A stretch of DNA of 23,060 nucleotides from positions 1-23,060 of the IMG/VR virus record IMGVR_UViG_2690316115_000020, one strand, 5' to 3'. Origin of the DNA: a virus. Lineage: Duplodnaviria > Heunggongvirae > Uroviricota > Caudoviricetes. The notes beneath the pieces are model-generated. The model had not been told where the DNA came from, ran no database searches, and was given only the letters and a program-made list of their open reading frames with translations. Position numbers and translations under genes: made by a program. The first letter of the stretch is position 1; every line of letters starts with the position of its first letter. Below are positions 2,872 to 22,146 of this stretch, in pieces.

Positions 2872-5403
2872 TTAAATTATTGATAGCGTTCTGATTTCAT
2901 TTCCGGCCGGTGATGTCATAACTATCTGTGTTACGTTAGCGCCGGACACCGTATACGTCAGAATTATGTTACCAGCGGTTCCTATATTAAAGTTTTGTTT
3001 AGCACCTGATGAACCTATAGCTTTGGCATTCGTTAAAGTATACGTATTACCTGAGGTAAATCCTGTAGAAATTACAAATTGTTGCCCAACTTTAAAAGGA
3101 ACTGTCATTGTTACGGATGTTGACTCGACAGTGATAAACGGCAGGCTATGCTGTTTAACTCCCGTCACATCCCAGAACTCACAATTACGCACCAATGCTC
3201 GACCAATTAAACCGCGAGTTACAGGGAATGTTGTCTGGTCCTGTGATAAGAATGCTCCAACAATTTGCACGTTATCGAGCGTAATATCGTGTACTGTGGC
3301 CCCATCTATAGGACTTAACGTTGGTGATGCACTCCATAATTTACCACCCTTCATTTTGATACTCACAGGACCATTTGGGTCTCCACCATAATATGCACGG
3401 ATACGCTCAAATTTACAATCTGTGAGTTCATAGCTGCCGCGTTGATTGGTTTCGAACATTGTGTAAGCCTCGCCAGGCACGCCATGTCTAACATTGCTGG
3501 CAACAACACGGGGGTTATGTCGGAACGATGCCGACGTAACAGAGAAAACCGGCGCGCAGACATCATTGATGAGAATGTCCGTGGTATAACGCCCTGTAAC
3601 AGCGTTCTCAGAGTTACTCATATCCGAATATAGCGCTTTAAAGCGGGAGAAGTCTATGTTAAGCCCAACCCCTGCGCTTTTCGGGAGGGAGCCAAAATCA
3701 AGCCCGTCAATAACAATTTTCTTCGGAAAGTAAAGAACATTGTCGCGGCTAACTGTGATCAAAGTTCCTGGGTAAGTCACTGCGACGCCGGGGTACATTT
3801 TAATATCTTTCAGGGTGATATTATTAAATAGCGTAGGGCTTATAGGCGATCCGCTACTAGGCCCCTGCCCAGCAGTGACGGAGGCATTGATAATGCCGTT
3901 ACCCGGAACGTCGTTGCGCAAACCAGTTAGCTTTATATTCTCCATGTATAAATCACCATCGAAGAATCCCCCAGCGTCAGGGCGAGTCGCAATAATATTA
4001 CCAGGCTTATATGGTGAAGCGTTAAATGTTGAATTGGTTACGTACAAATCTCCGATACCAGAAGCGAGGACACCATAAACCCCAATATTACAGTCATTTA
4101 TCTTTAAGTAGTTTTGGAAGGGCCTGTGGAAATCAATTCGACTAAGATCACATCTTTCAAACCTTATATTGGCGCAATTATTGCTGCCTGTCGCCCCCCA
4201 ACCTTGACCATTTGCCGTTGCGTTTTTGATAGTAACATTCATCGATTCGCCTAGCCCGATGGCGTATGCGTAGCTATCAACACCATCTATTAAGGCGTTT
4301 GCTATGGCTGGCGTGTATAAACCATCCACTATAACATCATAGCTGTCGTGAATTTCTAACCGGGTATCATTAAAGTTTTGCGTTATCGGTCTGTTAATAA
4401 ATGACGTATTAATCAGACGAACTCTTGTTGCCTGATTAATAAAAATAATGCGATACCTTGTAGTAAGGCTCTCATCTATAGTCAACCCCTTAATGGTCTG
4501 CACATCTTTGCGAATTTTAAGTGCTTTAATAGATGTTGCGTTAGTTCCCAGGGCGTACTTAAGCGGGTTTTCAATGTATCCACGGTTATATACCCTGTTG
4601 AAATCTACGCGAGTTTGATTAACGCCATCGAAAATAAACATCGGTTGAGATGTTGATAACTGAATGAAGCAGCCGTCAAGGTCGGTGTTAGAAGCCAAAC
4701 CGTCAAGATAGTTGCTGCCTATTCCGCGAGAGTTACGAGTGGACGCATTAACACCATTAACCGGGGCCGAACCTGCCTCATAGGTTACAGGAGCGTCAGG
4801 CTGGCTAATAACAATCTGACCTGTCCACGTAGCGGATGGCTTGAGGACAGAACCAGTTAAATCCACATTTAAACTTTTAATATCAAGATAAGTATCACCA
4901 TCTAGTAGAAAAGTTCCGTCAGATTGCCTAACGTCTAAATTATTTGAATAAGCATAGTTCAGTGCCTTAGCTATGGCGGGAGCGTCATTTGTTACTCCAT
5001 CACCAATAGCGCCAAACTCCTTCAACGTTACCCAGTATTTTACTTTCTCCAAGCTCTTTTGATACTGATCCGGGTCGTACTTCAGCACATTAGGAAAATA
5101 GAACTGCTGTGATCCATATGCATCATAAACAGCCATAGAGTGGCCTTGCACAGTTACGAACTTGGCAATCTGTCCGTTATATACCGGATATCCGGCGGCG
5201 TTAATGATGATTGGTTGCGAAACAGGAACGTGAGAACCGTCTTCGTTCTCTACATAAACCGGAATCTGGTTTTCAGGATTTACCGGGTCAGTGTCAATTT
5301 TACCGATATAAATTTTGCCATTGGCAACCGCTTTAAAAGAACGCGCCATAGTGAAGAGTTGCGAAGGCATACTCACTACAACATTGGCTGTAATGTCTGT
5401 CAT
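2872..5403 (-). CDS. Tailspike protein: P22-type head-binding N-terminal domain fused to a long, divergent beta-helix-like receptor-binding/depolymerase domain
   Basis: 843-aa ORF. The N-terminal ~115 aa ([59 protein letters not shown]...[10 protein letters not shown]) matches the P22 gp9 head-binding domain as I recall it. The remainder is unrelated to P22 gp9 and carries a pectate-lyase-like motif [20 protein letters not shown] near its start. GGAG Shine-Dalgarno 8 nt upstream of the ATG. Confidence 0.9.
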
Positions 5404-5461
5404 TTAATTTGCTCCAGATACAAGGAATCGCCGCAGCATGGCTACGGTGAATTTTGGGCAT

Positions 5462-5485
5462 AAAAAAACCCAGCCGAAGCTGGGT
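5462..5485 (-). terminator. Rho-independent terminator between ejection-protein gene (gp16) and tailspike gene
   Basis: On the minus strand: ACCCAGC-TTCG-GCTGGGT hairpin (7-bp GC-rich stem, 4-nt loop; plus coordinates 5468-5485) followed immediately by a run of 6-7 T (plus-strand A-run 5462-5467). Confidence 0.65.
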
Positions 5486-5535
5486 CGTTGCGTTGGTTAT
5501 CTGTAAGTAGTTATGTGCTTAGTTAATTATTTATT

Positions 5536-7380
5536 CTATTGTTCTGCTGTAATTTGGCTTGCAAGTATAGGGCGTATCGCATTTGCAGCATTATTTAGCG
5601 CTCTTTCATAGGCTGGTGTTCCAAGCTTAGTGTTTGCCAAACGAAGAAGCATATTCCTTGCGGCTTTGGACTCATACAAACGCATCATTGCACCGAAACC
5701 AGCCTCAAGCCCCATTGATACGCCAAGAGTCGCAGTTGCGCCAATCGTCCTTATCCTGTTGGCTTGCGATTGCCCCGTCTGAGTTACTACATTTGCGGTG
5801 TCTGACCTTGCTGTTTGCTGTAGAACTTCATGAAGAGCATCAAGCTCTTTCATGTGCTTTCCAGAAAAAATAGTGTTGTAAATTTCACCACCCGACTGAG
5901 ATTTCAGCTTATTAACTTCAGTGATGAACCTGGCTGGAGAGTCACCGGCCTTTTCCGCTATTTTGCTGACGTAAGCTGCACGCATAGCATCTTTCCCTTT
6001 ATCATCCAATGCGCTCCAGATTCGTTTCACGTCAGATGGTTTTCTGCTTAATACAACGGTATTTATAAGTTCAGGACTGGCTTCACTGCTTGCCTGGTTG
6101 AGCTTGTTAGCAATGTTTTTATTAAGCACCTTATTATAAACATTTGCATAATCGGAATTTGCTTTAAGGTATTTTGCTGCGTCTGATGCACCGAGGTTTT
6201 TTGCAACTGCGTTACGAAGGTCTTTTGACATTGCATTCTCTACCATATTGGTAGCTGCTTTTGCCTGGTTGGGGAAGACCATAGCATCTCCCTGAACATT
6301 AGATCTAAATGCTGTTCTGTGCTGACGCAAGAGATCAAACGTAACATCCAAATCAGTTGCAGGGTTTGCTAATTCTTCACGTAGGTTACGCAAGGATGTA
6401 AGCAGGCTTTGATTGGCAGACGTCCCGAGCCGTTCCTGTCTTGCGATCGCTGTATTCAGAGCATTCATGGTATTTGTGGTATCAACTGCGGCATTACCCA
6501 TTTTATTGGTGACGTCATTGATAACAGCGCCAGCAGCATCCTTCCGTTCCCTTAACGTGGTGGTCAGAGATTTCACCACATCATCCGGGTTGTACTCACC
6601 AAAACGCTCAAAATAATTACTTACCAACTTACTCCGCGTTGCATATTGCTCTGCCCTTTTACTGCCAGTTCCAAGAATGGCCCCCTCAGCATCCTGAGTA
6701 AGACCACGAGTGAAAGCATTTTTCGGCGGGATAACATCAGATGTCATTGGTGTCACGCCCATCGATTCTGATGTGGCAATTTTCTTCGCCACTTCTGGCG
6801 CAATATCACCTTTTATAGCCGTTATTCCACGCCCTATTCCCTTTGCTGCTGCGGAAAGAACCCCCTGAGCGGCAAGGTTAACTCCGGCATTTTTGGCTGC
6901 ATTTTGTGCGAAATCGCCTTTCTGATTTGCGGCCTCTGCCAGTGATCCAATAGCCATGCTTCCTGCCATTCCAACTCCTGGAACTAAATACCCGCCAATT
7001 GTTTCTCCAGCTTGCGCATAAGGGTCTGTCGGTCGATAGACTGGACGATAGACATCATCCAAAACCTTGGGACCACCAAGCCCCTGACTGATTGCATTAA
7101 TCAGGCTTGCACCACCCTGTAACACGTCAAATGGTATGTTTACCAGACCACGACCAGCCTGTTCTGCAATTTGCCCTGCACTTTGACCACCAGTGAGCCA
7201 ATCGCCAGCTTGTTGCATCAATGATGGTTCTTCCCGTGTTGGTGCATTATTGGCCTGATTAACTGTTTGTTGCTGAACAGCCTGACCAGCAAAATACTCA
7301 TCAATGGCGGTGCCAATATCTTCGGTGCTCGTACTATCAGGAAAGGTAAATGTCTTACCGTTTGCAGTTACTTTCATCAT
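5536..7380 (-). CDS. Ejection (injection) protein, P22 gp16 homolog
   Basis: 614 aa; N-terminus [33 protein letters not shown] matches P22 gp16 as recalled. Size (P22 gp16 about 609 aa) and position (last ejection gene before the tailspike) fit. Confidence 0.85.
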
Positions 7381-8789
7381 TCCACCGTAAATTGAATGCC
7401 TGATTTTGAGGTATATGATCCAACCTGATTCCGTGGTTCTCCTGAAGGTGTCGAATCTTGTGCTGGCGCTGCGTCAGTATTCAATGACATATACCGCTTA
7501 ACGGCACTCCCCAATGATTCACCTTTTTTAACATCCAACCCCAATATCTGACCGCCATTACGCGATTGTCCAGGGTTGCCATTCGCGCTCATCCACTCGG
7601 CTTTAAACTCATTAAACTGCGCGTTTCGTCGCTCAAGGTTTGCCATTGCATCAAGCCATCTTGCGACCGTCTCAGGGTTATCCATGTCAGTTGGCGCGCC
7701 CTGTCGAACGATCTCAACGTCTTTATCCGTTGCGGGGCCTGGAGGTAGGAATTTAAGAACCTGACTGTTAACAAGGGCATTTTGGCGGATGCGCAAATCA
7801 CGCAATGTTGTATCGCTTCCGGTAAGTTTTGCGAACATGTTCTGTGCGTTACCGAACAAACCTGTCGTTGGTTTTTCTGCTCTGAACTGTTGAGCAAGCG
7901 CACTCATAGAATTGGCTGAGTTTGATGATGCTGTAGCATTGTTTACAGCCGTCTCGATGCCTTTTTCCATGTTTACTGACAGCTTAGGTGCTTCGCTAAT
8001 CAACTGCTGAGCCTTTTCCTGCGCTTGCTGCATCTTAAACCCGAACTCTTGCTGATCCAGAGCCAAGCGTTGTGCTGCGATATTGTGCCCAGTCATTGCT
8101 GACTGATAGGAAAGGTTTTGCCCTCTCGCCTGAAGTGCTTCTCCAGCCTGATTGCTGCGGATTGTCTCTGCCAGCCTGCCTCGGTCAATTTCACGACCAG
8201 CCATCTTGTCCTGAACATTGAAGTAATCAATCGGACCAAGAGCAGCCATTCCAAGGTGATCAACAAACTCACCAAATCCTGAAGGGTTCTGCTGATACAT
8301 CTGAGCAACGCTGTTAGGGTCAACACCGACGCGCGCCAGCTCATTGGCGTTGTTTTGCAGCCATGATTGCATTGCTTCTGGAGACGAGGCCGCAAGGCGT
8401 GCGCCAGCCGCTAAGGTGCCGATAGAATTGCGCTGGTCTTCGTCTGCCCACTTCATACCAGACTGAATCTTCTCTAATTGACCAGGATATTTGGTCATCA
8501 GATCTCGCACCTGCTGCCGATCACCTGACTGGATGGCTGCCGCATATTCTTTTTGGAATGCAGCATCCGCTTCCTGTTGCTTTGCGGCTTGATATGTTTG
8601 AGCGACACTACCAAGCCCCTGCAACGCCTGAAGGCCGATGTTATTGCGACCTGAGCGCTCCATTTCGTTGTTCTGGCGAATATAGGCCAACGCCTCACTT
8701 ACATCACTTGCCTTTGGCGCATTTGAGTTTTGCCCACCGATACCAGCAAGAAAACCGCCTGAGTTGATTCCTTGTTGCCAAGTAGCCAT
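7377..8789 (-). CDS. Ejection protein, P22 gp20 homolog
   Basis: 470 aa (P22 gp20 about 471 aa). Sits between the gp7-like and gp16-like genes. Stop overlaps the gp16 start by 4 nt, suggesting translational coupling. Confidence 0.8.
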
Positions 8790-15136: not shown

Positions 15137-17335
15137 TTACTGCTGTGGTTGTTGCTGAGTTGATTTTTGCAGGATGCTGCTGATGTCCATGCGCTGCGCA
15201 TGGCCCTGTGCCTGACTTTTCAGGACAAGCTCTGCATCAGCACGGGCATTGTCTCCTTGCTGTTGCTGGAACTGTCCGAGCAGTTTCAGAGCCTCGCGGA
15301 TATCAGATTTCTGCTGGCTATCGGCAGATGCGAGGATTTTCACAACGTTTGCCGCTGCAACCTGAGCATCAGTCTGTGCCTGGAATGCTTTAACCTGAAT
15401 GGCTGCCTGTTCGTTCTGCGCTTTCTGCAATTCAGCCTGACCAGCAAGAAGCTGACCTTGCGCTGCAACCATAGCCGGATCTGGCTGACTGGCCTGTTGT
15501 TGTTTCGCCTGTTCAACCATCTGCTGTTCTTCAGGCGTTCTCGGCTTGATAACTCCAGACAGAAGCAACTGATTGCGGTTGTATTCTTTCAGGTCGTCCA
15601 TCCCTTCGCCGTCCATATTGTCGAGAATCATCGACGATACAAGGTCGTGCTTCGGCGTTCCTGGTGGGATAAGTGCCAGCATGGAAAGTAACGACTTAAC
15701 CGTTGCATCACGGCGAGTAGCGAACGACTGACCGACATCGACAGTCACTTCATAGTTACCCTGCGAAAGGTCATTAAGCGCGATAACCTGCCCTGTCTGA
15801 CGGTCAACCACTTCACCAGTCATCAGCGCCACGTCATCGCTGCCGTCCTCATTAACGATACGCATCGGCGTATCACTGCCATAGACCTCACGCGCCATAG
15901 AAAGCCACACAACGCCAGCGCGACGCATGGATTTAGCCATGTTGTCCATGTAGATATAGGACTGCGTATCCATCCGGTTAAAGATGCTATCAACGGTATC
16001 GGTGGCGACGTTGCTCGGCATGTTCTCAAGCTGCGACGCACCTGTAATTTGCTGAATAGCCGTTCCGGTGTACTGCAATAGCCCGGCAAGAGCTGGAGGC
16101 ATTTGTGTCGGAGGCGTATAACTGCTGACCTGAGCCTGCGCAGTAATATCTCCGTTTTTGTTTTTCAGACTGACCATCGGCAGGAACGCCGGGCGCTTTT
16201 TGTTGCGCTCCGCCCAATGAGTGGCGAGAGGACCAGGAATCATGTCAACATCAACTACAGGAATGCCATCACCGCCAGCCTGAGTGGCGTTATCTGCAAT
16301 CATGGAAACCATCAGGTTCTCAAGACGCTGTGCATCCATCGCTTTTGCTGCGTGGCCTTCGATTCGCTCCTGATTATCAACAAATGAGCGACGCCCATAT
16401 ACCGGGATGAGAGGAATATGTTCGCCCGGAATACGCTTCGGTTCTTCCAGCCATTCAGCGCCAGACAGAAGACCGCAATAAACGCGGCGCTTCTTCACCG
16501 TTCGCTCGCCAATCAGTTCGAATGCACCATCGGTCAGCTCGTCGACAATATCTTTGATTTGATCTTCATCATAGATTGCCGTTTCTCCGCTAACAGGGTT
16601 ACGCCATGCTGTGAGCTTCACCTTCTCTATGCGAACTTCGTAGTAGCGACCAACATAGATAGCATCAGGAGTTGACCAGTCATATTGAGTGCCAGTGTCA
16701 TCACGAGAAAGGCTTGCCGCGATGGAATCAGGGTATTCAGCCTCGAACGCTTTAGGCGTCATGGAGAACATTTCCATAGCCCACATAGCATCGGAGCGGT
16801 CATATTGCTTGCTGTCCTGATCGAAGAAGACGCATATCGCTGGGTCGTAAACAGGAAGAAGGCTGATGCGTCGCTGCTCGTTACTCGGATCCATTTCATC
16901 TTCGTAATCGGCACACATGCGGAAACAACCGAATCCGCCCGTTACAGCATCATCAAATGCGTTATCACACGCTTCACCACCGGATGTTTCCTGATAGTCA
17001 GCGCGGAATTTGCCGTTCATCTTTTCGGCTAACGCTTCCGATGCCTTATCGTCCTTCGGCCTGAATTTAACGCTGATGCGATTCTGTCGATACTCGCCAA
17101 TGATGCGATCACATTCACGGGCAATCTTATTTAGTTCAAAGCGCGGGTAATGCTCAAACCTGCCTTCATCAAATGAGTAACCAGCGTTTGTGCTGCCTTC
17201 CCACTGTGCGCCGGACACCCGGACGAAACGTTGAGCCTCAATAATCTGCTCACGCATATCCTGCGTTGCTGACCAGGCATTATCAAAGTTGCACAGCACC
17301 TTGCGATGCCAGTCAGTCATCTTTTTTTCTGCCAT
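15137..17335 (-). CDS. Portal protein, P22 gp1 homolog
   Basis: 732 aa (P22 portal about 725 aa). Segments matching recalled P22 portal: GEHIPLIPVYG, PRTPEEQQ, DPAMVAAQGQLLAGQAELQKAQN, DNARADAELVLK, QRMDISSILQ, ending in a glutamine-rich C-terminal barrel-like tail. Confidence 0.9.
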   Translation of the reverse strand: MAEKKMTDWHRKVLCNFDNAWSATQDMREQIIEAQRFVRVSGAQWEGSTNAGYSFDEGRFEHYPRFELNKIARECDRIIGEYRQNRISVKFRPKDDKASEALAEKMNGKFRADYQETSGGEACDNAFDDAVTGGFGCFRMCADYEDEMDPSNEQRRISLLPVYDPAICVFFDQDSKQYDRSDAMWAMEMFSMTPKAFEAEYPDSIAASLSRDDTGTQYDWSTPDAIYVGRYYEVRIEKVKLTAWRNPVSGETAIYDEDQIKDIVDELTDGAFELIGERTVKKRRVYCGLLSGAEWLEEPKRIPGEHIPLIPVYGRRSFVDNQERIEGHAAKAMDAQRLENLMVSMIADNATQAGGDGIPVVDVDMIPGPLATHWAERNKKRPAFLPMVSLKNKNGDITAQAQVSSYTPPTQMPPALAGLLQYTGTAIQQITGASQLENMPSNVATDTVDSIFNRMDTQSYIYMDNMAKSMRRAGVVWLSMAREVYGSDTPMRIVNEDGSDDVALMTGEVVDRQTGQVIALNDLSQGNYEVTVDVGQSFATRRDATVKSLLSMLALIPPGTPKHDLVSSMILDNMDGEGMDDLKEYNRNQLLLSGVIKPRTPEEQQMVEQAKQQQASQPDPAMVAAQGQLLAGQAELQKAQNEQAAIQVKAFQAQTDAQVAAANVVKILASADSQQKSDIREALKLLGQFQQQQGDNARADAELVLKSQAQGHAQRMDISSILQKSTQQQPQQ

Positions 17336-21130: not shown

Positions 21131-21136
21131 GTCTTA

Positions 21137-21150
21137 CCCCCAATAAGGGG
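21137..21150 (-). promoter_or_regulatory. sdi-like RNA stem-loop at the holin translation start
   Basis: Minus strand CCCC-TTATT-GGGG(G) immediately upstream of the S ATG; the 3' arm forms part of the GGGGGTAAG Shine-Dalgarno. In lambda the equivalent structure is known to control the choice between the Met1 and Met3 starts. Confidence 0.6.
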
Positions 21151-21570
21151 ATTTGCTCTATTTAATTAGGAATAAGGTCGATTACTGATAGAACAAATCC
21201 AGGCTACTGCGTTAAGTAATCAGATTTGTTCGTGACCGATATGCACGGGCAAAACGGCAGGAGGTTGTTAGCGCGACCTCCTGTCACCCGCTTTCACGAA
21301 GATCATGTGTAGAAGGCCGCAGCATAACTATCACTGATGAATTCAGGACATCCAGTGGCTACGGCTCAGTTTGGATTGTGGCGACCGGTGCTGATCTCCG
21401 GTTTGCTGCAACTGCCTACAGCGGGCTACGTGGCCACACCGAATCCAGCGAAAGATTCTTGCCCTTACACATCAGCCTGTGCATTCACCACAACGATAAG
21501 AGCACTGCGCGGCACCTTTCACCAATTCCGCGAGGTCTGAGGGTTCAATGCTCTTACCTGTTGTGCAAAC

Positions 21571-21612
21571 AAAAAAAGCCACCGTTGCAACTTAAGAGTC
21601 ACTAACGGCAGC
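21571..21612 (-). terminator. Candidate tR'-like intrinsic terminator downstream of the late promoter
   Basis: Minus strand: GCTGCCGTT ... AACGGTGGC imperfect 9-bp stem (two G-U pairs, long loop) followed by TTTTTTTG, then TGCACAACAGGTAAGAGCATTGA, which I recall from the lambda tR' / 6S RNA region. Loop length and exact pairing are uncertain. Confidence 0.45.
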
Positions 21613-21622
21613 TTATGCGAAT

Positions 21623-21651
21623 AGTGTTGCTCATTTGCTCAATGATGTCAA
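21623..21651 (-). promoter_or_regulatory. Candidate late promoter pR' (with Q-utilisation site expected nearby)
   Basis: Minus strand TTGACA (21651-21646) starting 6 nt after the Q stop codon, 17-nt spacer, then weak -10-like AACACT (21628-21623). Position between Q and the terminator is as expected for lambdoid late promoters. The -10 is poor, so the assignment is tentative. Confidence 0.3.
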
Positions 21652-21657
21652 CACGTT

Positions 21658-22146
21658 CTACGCTACATGTTTAATTTTCTCTACACGTTTCCGGTTTTTA
21701 AACGCACTATCCAGAACCGGGTAAATCATAAACAACGAGGCATTGAGGATTTCGTCAACTTCCCGACGACAGGTTGCGAGCGATGGTTTTTGAATGCGCC
21801 CGCCGCCCCGGCATAACATCTTGCGAGGTCTTGCGACGCGATGATAGTAAGATGCAATGGCGTGCTTGGAAGAACCGTGGGCGTAGTAGCTGAGGAGGAT
21901 GCCAAAGGCTTTCTTGTCAATGTACATGACGGAATCGACGACCTGAGAAATCAACATTCCATCATCATCATTGCACATCGGCCTTGTCATAACTCTTCCC
22001 GGCTCTACGCTCTCCATGAACTTCGCTATTACGCTGCTCATGCGCTTTTCAAGACGACCTGAATAAACCCATGCTCCCCACAGTTCAAGCCAGCCATTCA
22101 GCCAATCGTGCTGCTCTTTGGTGAGGTTTAGTTCTCTTATGCTCAT
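21658..22146 (-). CDS. Q: Late-gene antiterminator Q (phage-21-type Q family, distinct from lambda Q)
   Basis: 162 aa directly upstream of the late promoter and lysis cassette. Motifs LELWGAWV and TRPMCNDDDGMLI resemble the recalled E. coli prophage Q-family antiterminator QuuD (LERWGAWA, RPQCCDDDAMII). Confidence 0.75.
   Translation of the reverse strand: MSIRELNLTKEQHDWLNGWLELWGAWVYSGRLEKRMSSVIAKFMESVEPGRVMTRPMCNDDDGMLISQVVDSVMYIDKKAFGILLSYYAHGSSKHAIASYYHRVARPRKMLCRGGGRIQKPSLATCRREVDEILNASLFMIYPVLDSAFKNRKRVEKIKHVA

Follow-up and report, generated by a model that had tools for sequence, protein, structure and literature searches.

The region between gene 16 and the tailspike gene (gene 9) of the P22-like phages is known to be variable. 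It has been described as the 'ant moron', of which ten types were recognized in sixteen P22-like genomes (Villafane et al. 2008, PMC2629481; here and below we draw on the accessible part of that paper). As stated there, the moron is absent in Sf6, APSE-1/2 and phiSG1, is degraded in HK620 and Scho1, and in P22 affects how often polymerases from PLate get to the tailspike gene. The P22 late operon has been described with a single promoter, and the terminators within it may cut downstream mRNA or stop transcripts without gp23/gp24 antitermination (PMC8022706). In addition, tailspike synthesis in induced cultures is reported to be robust when sieA has been deleted (bioRxiv 10.1101/2023.08.15.553423).

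In P22 itself the ant gene is intact, is driven by the promoter Pant and is followed by a terminator, tANT, which is annotated at 16012-16035 of NC_002371. Berget, Poteete and Sauer are said to have found, in J Mol Biol in 1983, that transcripts from Pant end between ant and gene 9 and that the expression of gene 9 needs antiterminated late transcription. Adams, Brown and Casjens reportedly also dealt with termination between ant and gene 9 in 1985.

Here we describe the corresponding locus in a sequence of the Caudoviricetes from IMG/VR (record IMGVR_UViG_2690316115_000020, positions 1 to 23,060). The whole of this 23,060-nucleotide stretch is referred to as the window. We consider it likely that an ant moron has been deleted from this late operon, leaving a scar that carries tANT, and that the tailspike is expressed by Q-dependent read-through of this terminator. 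The features on which the argument is built are as follows.

5536..7380, minus strand: gp16-type DNA ejection protein gene, P22-type allele (ORF, 614 aa)
5404..5535, minus strand: spacer between the gp16 and tailspike genes, the scar of a deleted ant moron (132 nt)
5504..5519, minus strand: remnant of the last ant codons (from alignments; the same stretch overlaps annotated Ant genes in E. coli)
5462..5486, minus strand: tANT intrinsic terminator (hairpin and U-tract, identical to the annotated P22 terminator)
5428..5450, minus strand: leader hairpin (core of 7 bp, 5447..5441 / 5437..5431)
5415..5412 and 5403..5401, minus strand: tailspike Shine-Dalgarno sequence GGAG and start codon ATG (from the sequence)
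2872..5403, minus strand: tailspike gene (843 aa), with a P22-type head-binding domain and a different receptor-binding part
21658..22146, minus strand: Q-type late antiterminator gene (PF06530 Phage_antitermQ, E 1e-24), the proposed source of read-through at tANT
21569..21614, minus strand: tR'-like hairpin and U7 just 3' of Q (-20.2 kcal/mol, z -3.4)

The DNA ejection gene ends with a TAG stop codon at 5538-5536. Its product is 73.5-74% identical to P22 gp16 in amino acids over the full length, compared with 33% for Sf6 gp13, and the genes upstream of it encode gp20 (PF16928) and gp7 (PF25688). Residues 1-113 of the tailspike match the Pfam domain Head_binding (PF09008, E 2e-66). The two genes are separated by 132 bp (5404-5535), exactly as the original prediction had it. 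The small ORFs within this spacer are only 22-42 aa long, are without support and are attributed to chance. A tRNA scan found none, and NCBIfam returned zero matches for gp16, the tailspike, Q and the 475-aa ORF described below.

The surroundings of the locus deserve a brief description. The receptor-binding part of the tailspike (aa 122-707) resembles PDB entry 8x8m, a 'probable tail spike protein', and by its PDB matches is unlike the enzymes of P22, Sf6 and HK620; the tailspike is 89% identical to a prophage tailspike of E. coli BL12. Between the integrase and tailspike genes lies a plus-strand ORF of 475 aa (1376-2803), convergent with the tailspike gene and without a Pfam match. In P22-like phages the O-antigen modification genes (gtrABC, oac) are located between integrase and tailspike, and this ORF may serve in lysogenic conversion. 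A perfect, AT-rich 12-bp hairpin (2815-2847, -17.2 kcal/mol, z -4.1), flanked by A/T runs, lies in the 68 nt that separate the two convergent genes and is probably a shared bidirectional terminator.

Is there any trace of the moron genes themselves? A tblastn search of the whole window gave no credible match to the Ant, Arc and SieA proteins of P22 or to HkcB and HkcC of HK620. P22 Mnt gave a weak match in the gp20 gene (8225..8031, E 8e-4 for a 46-kb target), which was judged to be due to chance. A search of the whole window with Rfam at E <= 1 returned no family, hence no sar RNA. None of ant, arc, mnt, sieA and sar was found between genes 16 and 9, in agreement with the earlier proposal that the window has no immI/sieA region between the ejection genes and the tailspike.

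The spacer is nonetheless closely related to the end of the moron. In P22, epsilon34, CUS-3 and HK620, the counterpart of window positions 5519..5404 consists of the 3' end of ant, then tANT and then the leader of gene 9, and the identity is 95-98%. For example, identity is 96.6% between 5519..5403 and the final 117 nt of the HK620 16-9 region and 95.1% between 5516..5435 and P22 (82 nt aligned), and the most frequent IMG/VR variant of the spacer block departs from the window at 2 of 116 positions. With epsilon34 and CUS-3 the window is collinear across the last ant codons, tANT and the 58-nt leader. The last ant codons appear in the window alignment as ...CATAACTACTGA, and the former ant stop codon TGA is now TTA at 5506..5504.

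A megablast search with 5700..5250 against 50,697 phage records points in the same direction. It gave 74 matches, and in 0 of the 74 did the match reach the end of gp16. The best-covering matches mostly start at window position 5519 or 5516 and continue through the terminator into the head-binding domain, and the features annotated beneath them are 'Ant', 'terminator' and 'tail spike'. We checked that the homology of 5519..5404 to ant-tANT is present in relatives that contain ant, which supports the status of the spacer as a scar. The 17 nt from the gp16 stop to 5519, AATAAATAATTAACTAA, resemble ant sequence slightly farther upstream, AGAATAAAGAATTACC, and the homology to ant probably reaches about 5535 (AGAATAAATAATTA in the window, AGAATAAAGAATTA in ant). 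From the resemblance of these 17 nt we infer that the left endpoint of the deletion is probably at or beside the gp16 stop codon. Taken together, the homology to ant-tANT and the P22-type gp16 argue that the gap arose by deletion of the variable ant moron. As judged from these alignments, the spacer is a scar left by a former ant region, and it is nearest to the 'tANT remnant' of HK620.

The original prediction had described the locus as having an Sf6-like organisation. If this were a primitive state, the lineage would never have had an ant moron and the terminator would be an independent feature of the late operon. Phages without the moron do exist, as the accessible part of PMC2629481 states for Sf6, APSE-1/2 and phiSG1, and six IMG/VR contigs among the matches listed have Sf6-type spacers of 153-164 nt without tANT. 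Sf6 and the window share the complete lack of genes between the gp16 homologue and the tailspike, their spacers are of similar length (164 nt between Sf6 genes 13 and 14, 132 nt in the window), and in each a hairpin is found shortly before the Shine-Dalgarno sequence. However, the hairpin of Sf6, a strong one, is non-homologous and is not a U-tract terminator, and the homology of the two spacers covers the last 15 nt only, in the region from the Shine-Dalgarno sequence to the ATG. The window does not contain an Sf6-type 13-14 spacer, with its intergenic homology and its Sf6-type gp13; the window gp16 is of the P22 type, and the spacer holds the 3' end of ant, including its stop position, followed by ant's own terminator. 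A primitive Sf6-like state is in our judgement practically impossible, being refuted by the homology to ant coding sequence, and in terms of homology the Sf6-like label has to be given up. By sequence comparison, the likeness to Sf6 is confined to the absence of intervening genes.

The terminator itself had been predicted at 5462-5485, and the hairpin (5486..5467) and U7 tract (5468..5462) bear this out. The stem is 8 bp long (5486..5479 / 5474..5467), 5 of its 8 pairs are G-C, and the loop is UUCG (5478..5475). On the transcribed strand, a G+C-rich stem-loop is therefore followed by a U-tract, as expected of an intrinsic terminator. A 38-nt segment containing tANT folds at -14.5 kcal/mol (z -2.8; 4 of 200 shuffles were as good), and a pattern scan places tANT first among the terminator-like sites of the 20-kb late operon. 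From the end of the U-tract there are 58 nt to the tailspike ATG and 46 nt to the GGAG Shine-Dalgarno sequence, so that the distance of about 60 bp between terminator and ribosome-binding site in the original prediction was approximately right. We also considered a bidirectional terminator at this place and rejected it: the plus strand has the hairpin without a U-tract, and the scans call the minus strand only.

The stem-loop and U-tract are identical to those of the annotated P22 terminator (GACCCAGCUUCGGCUGGGUUUUUUU), and the record of epsilon34 annotates the same hairpin, with a stem-loop identical to that of the window, as a terminator after ant. Given this homology, and its place between the ant stop position and the gene 9 leader, we treat the hairpin as the orthologue of tANT. 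The CCCAGC/GCTGGG stem is altered in one of 33 distinct variants (contig L121, where a U-U mismatch weakens it) and is otherwise invariant. A one-G deletion in the stem is found in the scar copies of HK620 and of four E. coli loci (L006, L007, L009 and L014). In HK620 this leaves the 3' arm one G shorter than in the window, and the hairpin folds at only -8.2 kcal/mol. The weakened stems in several scar copies suggest that the terminator may be under little selection once ant has been lost.

The leader that follows is more widely shared. The tailspike start GGAGCAAATTAAATGACAGA is common to P22, epsilon34, CUS-3 and Sf6, and is found exactly in at least 119 IMG/VR contigs. The leader hairpin folds at -12.4 kcal/mol (z -3.4), which 0 of 200 shuffles equalled. 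It is conserved in 122 out of 134 leaders of tailspike genes, including leaders of phages without tANT. Across 51 distinct leaders, 97.2% of cells are paired versus 97.0% when shuffled, with one compensatory double change. Possible roles for the hairpin are in mRNA stability or in translation.

The junctions around the leader can host other sequences. An insert of 78-119 nt lies between tANT and the leader in P22 (L005, approximately 6055-6175), in contig L027 and in 11 further IMG/VR contigs where the distance from tANT to the ATG is 136 nt; the window, epsilon34, CUS-3 and HK620 lack it. The insert, 119 nt long in P22, has a direct repeat of AAAATTCACCGTAGC on its two sides and a hairpin of its own (GACCTACAAAAAAATTGTAGGTC in P22). 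In phage Kapi1 (L011, 3016-3650) an HNH endonuclease gene on the opposite strand is found between the ant/tANT/leader block and the tailspike gene, and the first bases of a tailspike start are duplicated upstream of this insert.

How might a gene located behind a terminator be expressed? Two answers had been offered, antiterminated read-through or a separate promoter. The second would place a promoter in the interval of approximately 58 nt from the terminator to the ATG, driving the tailspike gene independently of the late promoter. While an upstream terminator could logically call for re-initiation, nothing in the sequence backs a promoter here. Consensus scans were empty between tANT and the ribosome-binding site, the best sigma-70-like -35/-10 pair in 5480..5404 scores 7/12, a background level that is equalled in 86% of windows of the same size, and most of the interval is occupied by the leader hairpin and the Shine-Dalgarno sequence. 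The description of the P22 late operon with one promoter (PMC8022706) also speaks against this option, which we regard as very improbable.

Read-through, in comparison, agrees with the layout of the window. The genes for Q, holin, the endolysin-position product, Rz, terminase, head, ejection (gp7/gp20/gp16) and tailspike are co-oriented on the minus strand, which is the gene order of a Q-antiterminated late operon. One point against the comparison with P22 is that the Q of the window belongs to PF06530, and P22 gp23 is presumably of the lambda-Q type. The non-coding region after Q is 527 nt long (21131-21657). It has a TTGACA directly after the Q stop (21651-21646), the tR'-like hairpin with its U7, and a second hairpin at approximately 21283..21245 (-22.5 kcal/mol). 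The hairpin and U7 after Q are consistent with Q-dependent late transcription. A consensus scan called no promoter in 21131-21657, and the late promoter is to be seen as a candidate only. With no promoter between tANT and the ribosome-binding site, a Q gene, a co-oriented operon and a hairpin identical to that of P22, antiterminated read-through of tANT is the best-supported mechanism for the expression of the tailspike; this half of the original prediction appears sound, the promoter half does not.

We propose the following sequence of events. The ant moron (sieA, mnt, arc, sar and ant) has been deleted from a P22-like prophage; what is left of it are the last ant codons and tANT, followed by the conserved leader of the tailspike gene, which includes the hairpin and the ribosome-binding site. 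During lytic growth, RNA polymerase would initiate at a single late promoter 3' of Q, as in P22, and be modified by the Q antiterminator. The modified polymerase would then ignore tANT and transcribe the tailspike gene, the last of the late operon, and unmodified polymerase, e.g. from spurious or leaky transcripts, would halt at tANT. Termination at the window's tANT and its suppression by the window's Q we infer from P22 biology, the homology and the scar coming from the alignments themselves. The original task of tANT would have been to end Pant transcripts ahead of gene 9. With both Pant and ant lost, this task would no longer exist here, and tANT probably persists because of its position within a strongly conserved linker found ahead of all tailspike genes of the group. 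On the best-supported view, tANT is for the most part a relic that has travelled with the conserved leader of the tailspike gene.

Deletions of this type are not restricted to the window. A match to the spacer is found in 698 of 5426 complete E. coli genomes. For the context, we took a spread sample of rows with a spacer coverage of at least 80%. Nearly all of their matches begin within nt 14-21 of the spacer and overlap with an annotated Ant gene, which by sequence is the normal ant-tANT-tailspike context. The junction of gp16, scar and tailspike occurs in 17 complete E. coli genomes, with 92.7-97.3% identity over 451 nt. In the junction loci that we fetched (L006, L007, L009, L012, L013 and L014) the spacers are 130-131 nt by annotation and the annotated tailspikes range from approximately 680 to 843 aa, most of them resembling the tailspike of the window over the N-terminal ~120 aa only.

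The IMG/VR contigs, at least 119, were picked by an exact match to the conserved tailspike start, and tANT is present in 74 of the 119 listed. The distance from tANT to the ATG is 58 nt in 59 of these, 136 nt in 12 and 168 nt, as in P22, in 3. Among the matches listed, all tANT contigs with a measured 16-9 gap of at least 2 kb encode Ant, and L058, L063, L027 and L061 have tANT, a short gap and no moron genes. The window-type junction is found in L058 (132 nt), L063 (131 nt) and L121 (135 nt, with the weakened stem), and in L027 with a 78-nt insert. In L061 the junction is of another kind: it lies beside an HK620-type gp16, and approximately 45 nt of ant have been kept. The occurrences in E. 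coli and IMG/VR indicate that the scar is a recurrent, established architecture. From a comparison of the junctions, tANT has outlived at least three different deletions, namely the window type, L061 and HK620.

Some E. coli chromosomes also carry degraded P22-like remnants (L008 and L136), in which truncated head-binding-domain pseudogenes are preceded by the same leader. These adjoin IS481 or host genes, and the block of leader and tailspike 5' end persists in such prophage debris.

Why, then, has tANT been kept so often? One idea is that the block of ant 3' end, tANT and leader is kept mainly as a recombination linker, a 'boundary sequence' for tailspike swaps, with the terminator activity incidental. 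The block and the head-binding domain are 93-98% identical where gp16 is 33-74% identical and the receptor domains of the tailspikes are unrelated, and several different tailspikes occur behind one and the same scar junction. The GenBank record of CUS-3 names the same 101-nt stretch from ant to the tailspike 'bsq1; boundary sequence'. That said, the conservation is equally explicable by constraint on the leader and ribosome-binding site and by recent exchange, and the idea concerns evolutionary origin and makes no prediction on expression. We hold it to be possible but somewhat doubtful as the main reason, and it can be combined with the explanation that we prefer, a deletion scar with read-through of a relic tANT.

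A further idea, which we find rather unlikely, is that tANT and the leader hairpin act as a self-standing cassette for expression and recombination, with selection for it independent of ant. It would account for the fact that at least three deletion junctions (again the window type, L061 and HK620) stop just short of the cassette. If correct, the loss of the terminator or the leader, beyond that of the ribosome-binding site, would be counter-selected, with e.g. the tailspike and downstream conversion genes being insulated from unmodified transcription.

Alternatively, tANT could be an active dosage device, which sets the tailspike-to-head ratio by partial termination despite Q or as a 3' hairpin that protects the ejection-gene mRNA. 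The Q-modified elongation complexes of lambdoid phages read through intrinsic terminators efficiently, which speaks against such a role, as do the several scar copies with weakened stems and the Sf6-type phages, which do without a terminator at the same place. In its favour, the stem is near-invariant over the 33 distinct variants and tANT is kept by the same junctions, three at least. The reported influence of the P22 moron on the number of PLate polymerases reaching gene 9 would also fit, but this effect is ascribed to the moron's own transcription and repressors, and not to tANT alone (PMC2629481). We consider a dosage role decidedly improbable and continue to regard tANT as largely a relic.

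For curators of phage genomes, the consequence is that the spacer ought to be entered as the scar of an ant-moron deletion with tANT in it, and not as an Sf6-type junction. The locus provides a natural example in which the whole moron has gone from a P22-type late operon and the tailspike leader cassette has been preserved. This fits the published idea of one ancestral moron that was later reshaped by insertions and deletions. It also fits the report that the deletion of sieA from P22 is followed by robust tailspike synthesis after induction. The finding has little significance beyond annotation.

In summary, P22 and the window have the same flank from the last ant codons on and the same tailspike leader and ribosome-binding site; they differ in that the window is without ant, arc, sar, mnt and sieA, and without the 119-nt insert that P22 has between tANT and the leader. 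Epsilon34 and CUS-3 have the same distance of 58 nt between tANT and the ATG as the window. In HK620 (AF335538) the hairpin is labelled as 'terminator associated with remnant of P22 ant gene; tANT', and in both HK620 and the window ant has been lost and tANT and the leader have been kept. However, HK620 has a different type of gp16 and retains hkcB, hkcC, a remnant of HkcD and a tMNT remnant, with 1165 nt between genes 16 and 9, whereas in the window only the 132-nt scar is left. The locus is at the exact variable position of the published ant moron, and in the accessible part of that work we did not find the emptied form, with an ant-3'/tANT scar beside a P22-type gene 16 (PMC2629481). The P22 ant terminator, the concept of a variable or absent ant moron and the HK620 tANT remnant without ant are already known. 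The sole nuance added by the window is the fully emptied form beside a P22-type gene 16, which is already present in many public genomes.
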